From: an uncultured Chthoniobacterales bacterium
Lineage (GTDB): Bacteria; Verrucomicrobiota; Verrucomicrobiia; Chthoniobacterales; JAATET01
Direction: 5' to 3'
NCBI GenBank assembly: GCA_964247025.1
Contig: CAXTSM010000001.1
Span: 25,310-89,309 of the forward strand
Length of the DNA: 64,000 nt
Position 1 is the first letter of the stretch. Each line of letters begins with the position of its first letter. The position numbers and the translations under genes were made by a program. Positions 59,345-64,000 of the stretch are shown here, in pieces. The notes under the pieces were generated by a model, which saw only the letters and a list, made by a program, of their open reading frames with translations, was not told the DNA's origin and ran no database searches.

Positions 59345-62300
59345 ATGCCCCGCGTGAACTCTCTCGCCCCGGCCGCGCTCGCGGCGGCGGCGTTATTCCT
59401 GCCGTCGACCCGCGGCGGCGATCTCCTGCGGGGCGGGGCGCCGATGGGTTCGACCCACCGGGCCGCCACCGGCGGGAACAACGCCGGCGGCGCCTCGGCC
59501 GCCGCCGCGCAGGCCGTCGCCCGCGACCGTCTTTCCCGCACCACCCGGGCGCTCGACTCCATGGTGGCCCTGCAGACCGCCGCCCGCGCCGCCGCCGGCC
59601 GTCCGCGCCGGGATTTTCCCGTCATTCGCGACGGCCTCGGCAAAAACGGGCTCCAGCTGGCCCCCGGCGTGCCGAAGGATCTGGCCCATCCCGGCAAGGG
59701 CGAGGACCGCGGCCTGTGGACCGGCGCGGACTTGCCCACGCAGACGAAAAGCGGCGACCGCACGAACGTCACCATCGTTCAGACCAGGCAGCAGGCCCTG
59801 CTGAATTGGACCACGTTCGACGTCGGCGCGAAAACCACGCTCACCTTCGACCAGGGCGCGGGCGGCCGCGATAGCGGGAAATGGATCGCGTTCAACAAGA
59901 TCGACGACCCGAGCGGGCGTCCATCGCAGATCCTCGGCTCCATCCAGGCCGACGGGCAGGTCTACGTCCTCAACCAGAACGGCATCATTTTCGGCGGCGC
60001 CAGCCAGGTCAACGTCCACGCCCTCGTCGCCTCCGCCCTCCCGATCGATGGGAACCTCATCTCGCGCGGCCTCATCGACAATCCCGCGGCCCAATTCCTG
60101 TTCTCCGCGCCCCGCACCGAGCTCCTCGCCGGGCTCACCGCCGCCACCCCGGTCGTTTCGCTGCTCCGCGTGGTCGACGAGCGCAGCACGCCGAAAGTCA
60201 CGGCTTCCCTCACCCGAAAGACGCCCGCCGGCGGCTCGGAAAACCTCTCCGTCGACCTTGTCCCCGGCCGCGACTACACGCTCGTCACCCGCGCCAATCG
60301 CCGTTCCACCCTCACGCTTACCGCCGCCGGCCTGGCAAAAACCCAGGGGCCGGAAATCACCGCCACGACCTATCGCGCGTCCTACGTGGAGCTCAATGGC
60401 GACATCGTCGTGGACCGCGGCGCCCGGCTCGAGAGCCCCACTTCCCCCGCCAAGGTCGGCGGTCGCATCATGCTCGCCGGCGCGAACGTCGCGAATGCCG
60501 GCACCATCTCCACCCCGGACGGGCAGGCCATTCTCGCGGCCGGCCTGCAGGTCGGCATCGACGCCCATAAAAGCAGCGACCCCTCGATCCGCGGCCTGGA
60601 CGTTTACGTCGGCAAAGTCTTCGACCCCGACACGATGACCGGAGATTTCGCCGGCACGGCCACGAATTCCGGCCTCATCCAGGCGCCGCGCGCCAACGCC
60701 ACCCTCACCGGTCGGAGCGTCGGCCAGCTCGGCGTGATCGACGGCTCCACGTCCGTTTCCCTGAACGGCAGCATCACCCTCGCGGCGAACTACGACGCCA
60801 CGCGGAACTCGAACTACGACCCGTCGGATCCGGCCAAGGGCGCGATCTTCAACTACCGCTCCACCGGTGCGATCACGCTCGGCGACGGCAGCGTCACCCG
60901 CATCCTGCCCGAATCCGCCAGCTCCGAGAGCCGCACCGAGCTCGGGCACGCGTCCCTCATGACCCTCGCCGGCCGCACGATCCACCTCGAGACCGGCGCC
61001 ACCATCCTCGCCCCCAACGCCGACGTCACCGCGCAGGCCGGCAACTGGCTTTTCCTTCCCTCGAGCGGAGCCGGCGCGCCGACCTCGGAATTCGTCTACA
61101 CCGGCGGGCAAATCTACCTCGATCGCGGCGCGGTCATCGACGTCGCGGGCTCCACCGGCGCCCTGTCGCCCCTGTCGCAAAATATCCTCCAGCTCCAGCT
61201 CCGCGGCGCCGAGCTGTCCGACTCCCCGCTCCAGCGCACCGGCCCGCTGCGCGCCACCGACCTCGTCGTCGACCTGCGGAATCACGGCCGCTCTCTCGGC
61301 CGCGACTGGCTGGGCACCCCGCTCGCCGACGTCTCCGGCTACGCCAAGTTGATCGAGCGCACCGTCGCCGAGCTCACGACGGCCGGCGGCACCGTGGACC
61401 TGCGCGCGGGCGGTTCCGTGGTCCTCCAAAAAGGCTCCGCCGTGGATGTCTCCGGCGGCTGGGTTCGGTATCGATCGGGGCTTGTCGAGACGAGCCGCGT
61501 CTGGTCGGGCAATCGCCTCATCGACATCGCGAACGCCACGCCCGATCTCGTTTACGACGGCCTCTACACCGCGAAATTCCTCCTGGTCCAGCCGAAGTGG
61601 GGCATCAGCACGACCTTCGCGAATCCCCTCTCGCTCGGGAATCGCCACTTCGAGCGCAACTACGTCGCCGGGGACGACGGCGGCCGCATCGCGATCACCG
61701 CCCCCGCCATGGCGCTCGACGGCCGGCTGTCGGGCAACACCACCGCCGGTCCGCGCCAGCTCCGCGACGCCGGGGGCGCCTCCGACCTGCCCGCCGCCAG
61801 CCGCCTCGCGCTCGTTTTCCAATCCCAGATTCCCTCCCAAATCGATCCGCACATCACCCTCACCGTTTCGCCCCATGCGCCCCGCGTCGTCTTCGGCGAC
61901 GATCCCGGCCAGCCCGCGGCGGGGCCGTTCCGGCTCGACGCTTTCGGCGATCCCCGCGACTTGCCCGCCGCCCGTGAAAAGCTCGTCATGATCTCTCCGG
62001 ACCTCGTCGATCGCGACGGTTTCGGCTCGCTCGCCATCGACGACAGCTCCGGCCGCATCGACCTGCCCGCTTCCGTTTCCCTCGACTTCGCCCCGGGCGC
62101 GCCGGGGGACCCCGCCCTCGCGAACCTCGACCTCCAGGCCCTTCGCATCGACGTCGGCGGCGACATCGTGGCCCCCGGGGGAAGCTTGAAGTTCACCGTC
62201 TACAGCTACTCGAAATCCGACTTCAACCTTCTCGCCTCGACCACGCCGCCCGAGGATCTCCCCGCGCCCGAACCCGACCCGCGTTCCGGCAATTTCGTCC

Positions 62301-64000: not shown

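Follow-up and report, generated by a model that had tools for sequence, protein, structure and literature searches.

A probable second giant TpsA gene at the end of a Pdt-like two-partner secretion cluster in an uncultured Chthoniobacterales bacterium

In Pseudomonas aeruginosa, the genes PA0691 to PA0699 comprise phdA, pdtB, exbB2, exbD2, tonB4, a putative outer membrane porin gene (PA0696), PA0697, a YbjN gene (PA0698) and a gene for a PpiC peptidyl-prolyl isomerase (PPIase; PA0699), with pdtA (PA0690) located upstream (PMC2729926, PMC7035377). The TonB module of this locus was termed "still uncharacterized" (PMC7035377), and the functions of PA0696 to PA0700 were described as unknown (PMC2729926, PMC7035377). 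PdtAB, which belongs with its neighbouring genes to the PUMA3/sigma-VreI regulon, is induced under phosphate starvation via PhoB and sigma-VreI (PMC4971064, PMC5422565), and pdtA has its own mapped promoter, which includes a response-regulator site, a pho box (PMC4971064). HxuABC is a two-partner secretion (TPS) system working with a TonB-dependent outer-membrane protein (PMC5422565). A literature search gave no paper tying TPS, TonB and Verrucomicrobia together, and nothing relevant on DUF3739. The present analysis concerns a stretch of 64,000 nucleotides from an uncultured Chthoniobacterales bacterium (contig CAXTSM010000001.1, positions 25,310 to 89,309; hereafter the window), in which tblastn showed one gene for a TpsB transporter (tpsB) and two genes for giant TpsA exoproteins, tpsA1 (gene 1; 32540..44179, + strand) and tpsA2 (gene 2; 59345..64000, + strand). 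Gene 2 is cut by the window edge and is very probably a real second gene of the filamentous-haemagglutinin (FHA)-like TpsA kind, paralogous to the 3,879-aa gene 1.

Translation of the + strand from the ATG at 59345 to position 64000 gave 1,552 codons with zero stops, as an earlier note on this DNA had claimed, and the stop codon is located past the window end. The translation begins MPRVNSLAPAALAAAALFLPSTRGGDLLRGG, and the visible part corresponds to the 5' portion (~39%) of a giant TpsA gene, identified from its open frame, its TPS domain and its homology to gene 1. The GC content of the frame was 0.87 at third codon positions (GC3) and 0.55 at second positions (GC2), which is typical of coding DNA in a window of 67.8% GC. 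The protein of gene 1 is complete (3,879 aa, with a TPS domain and a C-terminal DUF3739 by Pfam), and BLASTP against it showed 49% identity over 1,598 columns in a collinear alignment that runs from residue 14 through the last residue of the gene 2 fragment, so the collinear homology proposed in the same note was borne out by alignment. The downstream repeat blocks that it had described were present as collinear conserved blocks and were not repeats, self-BLAST of the 1,552 residues having found no internal repeats. The fragment was rich in Gly, Ala, Ser, Thr and Asp, also in Leu and Val, and it was free of cysteine.

In the region of gene 2, the mechanical list of open reading frames (ORFs) showed antisense and off-frame ORFs and no + strand ORF. 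The list leaves out ORFs running off either window end, and gene 2 is absent from it because its frame does so, which agrees with the explanation offered earlier (that the track requires an in-window stop). The listed antisense ORF 59393..62755 (- strand; 1,120 aa) is an artefact standing in place of a ~12-kb gene. The lesson for annotation is that an ORF track demanding an in-window stop can hide a gene of this size while showing a 1,120-codon antisense ORF.

The TPS domain of gene 2 was detected above the curated cut-offs of both Pfam (PF05860, 61.8 bits versus 33.5) and NCBIfam (TIGR01901, the filamentous-haemagglutinin N-terminal domain, 67.2 bits versus 29.1), so that its reported presence was upheld. 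The PDB sequence matches were headed by the EtpA secretion domain (E = 1e-14), followed by HxuA and HMW1. An AlphaFold model of residues 1-520, built on an alignment of 41 relatives, had a mean predicted local distance difference test score (pLDDT) of 82.2 and showed a mature N-terminus without order, behind which a single long helix (residues 49-84) precedes a beta-helix; the whole TPS domain was covered by this model and by the fold search. With Foldseek against the PDB, the top eight matches were the secretion domains of EtpA, HMW1 and HxuA (E = 3e-9 to 5e-7, probability 1.00), after which came HpmA and FHA, the FHA secretion domain (1rwr) being a weak match (E = 1e-2). These sequence and model comparisons place the TPS domain of gene 2 in the HMW1/EtpA/HxuA subtype and not in the FHA/CdiA type, and since the top fold matches were all TPS domains, gene 2 is read as encoding a TpsA passenger that uses the two-partner (type Vb) route.

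At the N-terminus, a Sec signal peptide was predicted by sequence inspection (MPRVNSLAPAALAAAALFLPSTRG; 59345..59416, + strand), with MPR, a 13-residue hydrophobic core and TRG|GD, and the mature end starts with GDLLRGG (residues 25-31; window 59417-59437), the motif that had been noted behind the signal peptide. The position of the cleavage site was conserved among relatives. In gene 1 the corresponding GDILRGG (residues 31-37; window 32630-32650) lies immediately behind the signal peptide, and GD[IL]LRGG was found right behind a hydrophobic segment or cleavage position in 63 of 126 relatives, among them most of the verrucomicrobial ones whose N-termini are complete; proteobacterial homologues were without it. 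The long helix at residues 49-84, which is conserved, sits between GD[IL]LRGG and the TPS beta-helix. The second TPS box of gene 2 is NQNGIIFG (residues 210-217), and no clear NPNL box was seen in the protein. In the 41 relatives N212, G213, I214, I215, F216 and G217 were invariant and N210 was at least 90% conserved, and gene 2 keeps the invariant TPS residues.

The nearest relatives belong to the Verrucomicrobiota (Terrimicrobiaceae and Chthoniobacterales). A protein search with gene 2 gave no match above 57% identity, and a scan of genome contigs yielded only relatives that were at most 38% identical. Loci of relatives are denoted here by L numbers. In L006, L005, L010, L002 and one JGI contig, the cluster order was tpsB, a long exbB, exbD, tonB, a Porin_5 gene, a small-protein gene, sometimes a PpiC isomerase gene, and tpsA. 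In all relatives that were examined (L005, L006, L010, L002 and L007), tpsA came last in the tpsB cluster. Full-length cluster-linked orthologues were 3,954, 3,944, 4,133 and 3,959 aa long; the domain scan covered the first three of these four (the fourth being the 3,959-aa ORF of L001), and all three carried TPS and DUF3739. The complete product of gene 2 is therefore predicted, from these relatives, to be about 3,900-4,100 aa long and to end in DUF3739 rather than in a toxin.

One Terrimicrobiaceae metagenome-assembled genome (MAG) contained both kinds of tpsA, P0001 (L006) behind a tpsB cluster and P0002 (L004) behind the genes SecA...FIST-HlyD-ABC-MacB, the latter being exactly the arrangement that surrounds gene 1 in the window and thus conserved in L004. 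Reciprocal best hits paired gene 2 with P0001 (57% identity) and gene 1 with P0002 (56%), compared with 48-49% between genes 1 and 2. As these pairs cross between the genomes according to context, the tpsA duplication took place before these organisms diverged, and by its sequence relationships gene 2 is the cluster-linked orthologue. The earlier picture of two TpsA cargos flanking a single tpsB thus stands in its arrangement, with two tpsA genes and one tpsB between them, and fails in treating the cargos as alike: by the same comparisons the two are non-equivalent, only gene 2 belonging to the end of the tpsB cluster. In the 7.7 kb between gene 1 and the downstream tpsB lie a Sel1 gene, three genes on the minus strand and two pairs that each consist of a PEP-CTERM protein and a ~415-aa protein.

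The cluster itself lies on the + strand and starts with tpsB (51911..53548), 5.8 kb upstream of gene 2 on the same strand, whose product was identified by a domain search (POTRA_2, E = 2.7e-16; ShlB, E = 6.5e-16). Five genes that the earlier note had not mentioned separate it from gene 2. These encode a long ExbB of 612 aa with DUF2341 and LamG followed by MotA/ExbB (53560..55398; start codon reassessed), ExbD (55399..55806; PF02472, E = 5e-29), a TonB-like protein (55803..56513; TonB_2, E = 1e-9), a 686-aa outer-membrane barrel protein of the Porin_5 family, which has a signal peptide and a linker rich in Ala and Pro (56531..58591; PF16930, E = 2e-199) and an exported coiled-coil protein of 204 aa (58595..59209), for which a signal peptide was seen in the sequence and the coil in a structure model. 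From tpsB to 59209 all genes were on the same strand, with gaps of at most 17 nt or with overlaps. A 949-aa ORF (55742..58591) was considered as tpsB and rejected, as it is a composite of the TonB gene in another frame and the Porin_5 gene from 56531.

No further domain was found in the Porin_5 protein by Pfam and NCBIfam, and PDB sequence searches gave no meaningful match, and thus no relative of solved structure, for this protein and no meaningful match for the DUF3739 end. The model of the 204-aa protein showed a single helix over residues 24-165 (~140 residues, pLDDT 80), a coiled coil that, as modelled, may be long enough to span the periplasm. Homologues occupy the equivalent slot in the clusters of L002, L005, L006, L007, L008 and L009, and one database protein (P0241) was 100% identical to the protein of the window. 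A conserved REPFxG motif was present at the C-terminus of the 204-aa protein.

Two proteobacterial clusters were found by tblastn of plasmids with the Porin_5 domain. A Methylosinus plasmid (L007) contained, in order, ECF sigma/FecR, TpsB, ExbB, ExbD, TonB, a putative porin, a 197-aa hypothetical protein, PPIase, YbjN and, at the end, a 4,128-aa protein of the FHA family; on a Klebsiella plasmid (L008) the series opened with a 4,121-aa protein of the FHA family and continued with TpsB, ExbB, ExbD, TonB, porin, a protein of 222 aa, YbjN and PPIase. P. chlororaphis (L009) had DUF772, TpsB, DUF2341/LamG/ExbB, ExbD, TonB, Porin_5, a 214-aa protein, YbjN and Rotamase. Between the window and Methylosinus all cluster components were homologous, with identities of 48% for TpsB, 50% for ExbB, 60% for ExbD, 42% for TonB, 44% for the porin, 28% for the small protein (E = 2e-21) and 28% for TpsA over 1,535 aa. 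The link to P. aeruginosa was drawn through the names and order of its genes as published, and through loci from other Pseudomonas species and other proteobacteria, rather than through P. aeruginosa sequence.

Seen in this way, the window and the Pdt locus share TpsB, a long ExbB, ExbD, TonB, a putative porin, an exported small protein that is helical, and a TpsA close to 4,000 aa in length, as well as the HMW-like type of TPS domain, with the Porin_5 protein in the position of PA0696 and the 204-aa protein in that of PA0697. On this evidence of sequence and order, the cluster as a whole is read as what corresponds in Verrucomicrobiota to pdtA plus PA0692-PA0697 of P. aeruginosa. A further likeness is that tpsA of P. 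aeruginosa has its own promoter with a pho box and that a direct-repeat motif occupies a comparable place in the window. The two loci differ in that tpsA ends the cluster in the window, as in Methylosinus, whereas it precedes tpsB in P. aeruginosa, and in that no VreA/VreI/VreR-type genes were found nearby (no sigma-70_r2/r4, FecR or STN among the ORFs scanned at 19.5-59 kb); ECF sigma, anti-sigma and receptor-type genes were present in L007 and partly in L008. The window is also without a YbjN or PpiC gene, the 204-aa gene directly preceding tpsA2, while a PpiC isomerase was present in L006, L010, L011 and one JGI contig. Two other differences are the second paralogue of the window, gene 1, which stands under an unlinked promoter, and the GD[IL]LRGG mature N-terminus, which is specific to the verrucomicrobial proteins.

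HMW1/HMW1B of Haemophilus influenzae, EtpA/EtpB of enterotoxigenic Escherichia coli and HxuA/HxuB/HxuC gave the best sequence and fold matches to the TPS domain of gene 2, and they too have large beta-helical TpsA passengers exported by a TpsB of the ShlB family. Their TPS identity to gene 2 was, however, just 15-22%, and they are far shorter, have no DUF3739 and come without ExbB/ExbD/TonB genes of their own; in place of HxuC, a TonB-dependent transporter of the classical kind, the window has a Porin_5 protein. Bordetella FhaB/FhaC resembles the present system in that a giant TpsA carries its TPS domain at the N-terminus and has a TpsB dedicated to it, and differs in its NPNL and NPNGI boxes, in a C-terminal prodomain that is not DUF3739 and in having no TonB/Porin_5 module.

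Genes 1 and 2 were nearly identical over a short tract of the TPS core, in which 208 of 210 nt agreed (gene 2, 59837..60046; gene 1, 33092-33301; + strand), including an exact run of 143 nt, while the flanks on either side were 60-70% identical. In the codon alignment, residues 158-217 of gene 2 showed 92% protein and 95% nucleotide identity to gene 1, and third positions of identical codons were 96% identical versus 33-77% elsewhere. Over the tract, identity was 99% for the within-genome pair compared with 77-83% for orthologue pairs. In the same 30-codon windows the orthologue pairs reached just 73-86%, and the MAG's own paralogue pair showed no identity excess there; over the rest of the gene the values were 0.64 for orthologues and 0.58 for paralogues. 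The tract thus records a gene conversion, recent and specific to this lineage, in the TPS core, the region to which recognition by a TpsB is directed. Probably the one TpsB serves gene 1 as well as gene 2, with which the homogenised TPS cores are consistent, although they are not proof of it. In Bordetella, a single TpsB (FhaC) serves the paralogous TpsA proteins FhaB and FhaS.

The explanation that best fits these results, and one that is held with high confidence, is that gene 2 encodes a giant TpsA and is the last gene of a conserved Pdt-type cluster for two-partner (type Vb) secretion. From established knowledge of TPS systems, the TpsA2 precursor would cross the inner membrane via Sec, its TPS domain would be recognised in the periplasm by the POTRA domains of TpsB (51911-53548), and the chain would thread through the TpsB barrel and fold outside the cell as a long beta-helical fibre. 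The strict co-occurrence of the TonB/Porin_5 module with TpsA/TpsB across phyla suggests that the DUF3739 end, the TonB motor, Porin_5 and the coiled-coil protein are functionally coupled to TpsA/TpsB, for which HxuABC, with a TPS protein feeding a TonB-dependent importer, may serve as a precedent by analogy. A more far-reaching idea, put forward only tentatively, is that the TonB-ExbB(DUF2341/LamG)-ExbD motor, Porin_5 and the coiled coil are working parts of an energised two-partner secretion that extends from Verrucomicrobiota to Pseudomonas and here serves two passengers with conversion-matched TpsB-recognition cores. If true, proton-motive force would be coupled to the export, surface retention or release of a TpsA of ~4,000 residues, or to the uptake of fibre cargo.

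Gene 2 itself is an ordinary TpsA, and the cluster is already known from Pseudomonas. Its interest lies in the fact that a Pdt-type cluster, studied only in P. aeruginosa, keeps the same order in free-living Verrucomicrobiota; the breadth of phyla speaks for a general role in the envelope rather than one tied to virulence. The two differently wired paralogues, the operator of gene 1 and tpsB, the motif of gene 2 and the conversion confined to the TpsB-recognition core (operator and motif are described below) offer handles for comparative work.

The spacer between the 204-aa gene and gene 2 (59210-59344) is 135 nt long. It contains a 7-bp GC hairpin without a U-tract, 8 nt past the stop of the upstream gene (59217..59234, + strand), and a palindrome GGAACGtCGTTCC (59272..59284), so that the gap and both elements of the earlier description were found as reported; a perfect 20-bp palindrome GACGCGGTGGTCACCGCGTC (59305..59324), in the probable 5' leader, had not been noted there. 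Neither palindrome was seen at a matching place in the spacers of relatives. As the whole spacer folded no better than shuffled sequence (z = -0.10), the hairpins are not beyond chance at this GC content. Rfam gave nothing on the spacer, its best match being a snoRNA at E = 0.63 on the opposite strand. A reading of the spacer as an RNA element was rejected on these two grounds.

Comparison of the spacers of relatives revealed a conserved cis motif, TGTCACGAAAAGTTCACG-N7-CGTTGT (59237..59267, + strand), with the direct repeat TGTSAC-N5-GTTCAC, which ends 77 nt ahead of the ATG of gene 2. Its 31-nt consensus, TGTSACGAAAAGTTCACG-N7-SRTTGT, was shared by four independent loci upstream of the cluster-linked tpsA (window 59237-59267, L006 9849-9879, L010 9628-9658 and L011/L012, in L011 at 3371-3401), at about 60-150 nt from the tpsA start in the orthologous loci. 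The motif was kept although the remaining spacer was unalignable, the flanking proteins were 48-57% identical and the upstream gene differed (the 204-aa protein gene or the PPIase gene). The exact 14-mer core occurred a single time in the window, and a scan of the window did not find the motif upstream of tpsB or gene 1. In L010, TGTCAC-N5-TGTCAC was also present upstream of its tpsB (1287-1303). The direct repeat has an 11-bp period, which is the layout of sites of the OmpR/PhoB family, and in our own comparison positions 59237-59253 agreed with the pho-box consensus at 12 of 18 positions, a resemblance of shape only. A response-regulator site of the OmpR/PhoB type is accordingly offered as a hypothesis for this motif.

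In L011, a terminator with a 13-bp stem and a T6 tail lies between the upstream gene and the motif, and tpsA of that locus needs its own promoter because this canonical terminator precedes the motif. The U-less hairpin of the window and a hairpin of L010 occupy the position of the L011 terminator. Because the motif is conserved in four loci, once behind a canonical terminator, gene 2 is probably under its own regulated promoter, separate from the tpsB operon. Of the two options left open earlier, read-through from tpsB or separate control, the latter is hence favoured by the 31-nt motif, and the hairpin and palindrome to which attention had been drawn were not conserved in sequence.

Several points weigh against the view of gene 2 as an intact and separately controlled tpsA. 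The Pfam TPS match spans only profile positions 17-113 of 252, and the NPNGI box reads NQNGI. The 3' 60% of the gene lies beyond the window, where a later frameshift, a truncation or another C-terminal domain is possible, and the tpsA orthologue of L005, a Chthoniobacteraceae MAG, was split over three overlapping frames (10001..18019, 17974..18705 and 18546..21272), reflecting either assembly frameshifts or a pseudogene. For the spacer, the response-regulator reading draws on shape as its sole basis, a simple scan of 51.5-59.6 kb showed no sigma-70-like promoter in the 135 nt, and a simple scan showed no intrinsic terminator between tpsB and gene 2, which makes read-through possible. The broken L005 frames and the visibility of just 39% of the expected length would suit a duplicate of gene 1 in decay, either a pseudogene or a remnant without function, whose frame happens to be open within the window, and antisense frames in this GC-rich DNA can likewise be open for more than 1,000 codons. 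Such decay is nevertheless highly improbable, given 1,552 stop-free codons at the high GC3 reported above, the retained invariant TPS residues, an orthologue lineage of its own that is nearer to cluster-linked copies elsewhere than to gene 1, and intact orthologues of 3,944-4,133 aa at the same cluster position. Hardly more credible is a CdiA-like contact-dependent inhibition (CDI) protein or other polymorphic toxin, with a C-terminal toxin and an immunity gene beyond the window. TPS-domain giants of many bacteria are CdiA toxins, the C-terminus of gene 2 is outside the window, and a polymorphic-toxin survey is said to include verrucomicrobial FHA-like proteins; yet DUF3739 ends gene 1 and all three full-length relatives, out of four, that were scanned for domains, the TPS domain belongs to the HMW1/EtpA/HxuA and not the FHA/CdiA type, and the cluster matches the non-CDI PdtAB system.

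The alternative that gene 2 is solely read through as the last cistron of the tpsB operon, with the spacer motif acting at the RNA level or not regulatory at all, is unlikely, but by no means as unlikely as decay or a toxin. The close spacing of the genes from tpsB to 59209, the spacer without a detected terminator or sigma-70-like promoter, and the missing U-tract of the hairpin past the upstream stop all agree with it. Its weakness lies in the motif, which was conserved before tpsA in four loci regardless of the gene upstream and was parted from that gene by the terminator in L011, and in the mapped promoter that pdtA of P. aeruginosa has of its own (PMC4971064). A role of the motif in RNA structure is disfavoured because a G-to-C change in the copy of the window breaks the only possible small RNA stem. 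Separate control of an intact tpsA2 accordingly remains the preferred reading.

Gene 1 and tpsB carry another upstream signal. A pattern scan found promoter-like TTGACG-N18-AAATAT followed by the palindrome ACGAT-N7-ATCGT (51827-51843) before tpsB (51797..51843, + strand), and promoter-like TTGACT-N19-TATTCT followed by the same palindrome (32511-32527) before gene 1 (32475..32527, + strand). ACGAT-N7-ATCGT had 3 exact matches in the window versus 0.08 expected, and the third (14088), in coding DNA, is probably a chance match. Among relatives it was present in corresponding positions, at L004 9819-9835 (the gene-1-like copy), L006 1101-1117 (tpsB) and L001 2871-2887. This distribution suggests one regulator common to gene 1 and the tpsB operon and not to gene 2. 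The tpsB operon probably starts at its own promoter, because a hairpin or terminator-like element follows the gene for a 413-aa protein upstream. After the stop of that gene (51720-51770), a self-complementary hairpin CCCGCGGG...CCCGCGGG is followed by GTTTTC, and L010 has a clearer terminator at the matching position.

An HlyD-like adaptor, an ABC ATPase and a MacB/FtsX permease are encoded directly upstream of gene 1 (29300-32452), and they may form an unrelated efflux system or one linked to gene 1. The PEP-CTERM/~415-aa pairs between gene 1 and tpsB are arranged divergently (46350-47612 and 47649-48437 on the - strand, 49518-50426 and 50462-51703 on the + strand); the ~415-aa proteins are paralogues of one another without Pfam domains, and homologues adjoin TPS clusters in L001, L002, L005 and L006. 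No Shine-Dalgarno-like sequence was evident at the starts of tpsB, Porin_5 and gene 2 or at those of tpsB and the gene-1-like copy in L004 and L006. The sequence CAACCGAC(C/T) was present 5-15 nt ahead of the tpsB and Porin_5 starts (51890-51900 and 56515-56525) and also ahead of the tpsB and gene-1-like starts in L004 and L006, and gene 2 has a similar ATCCGACC.

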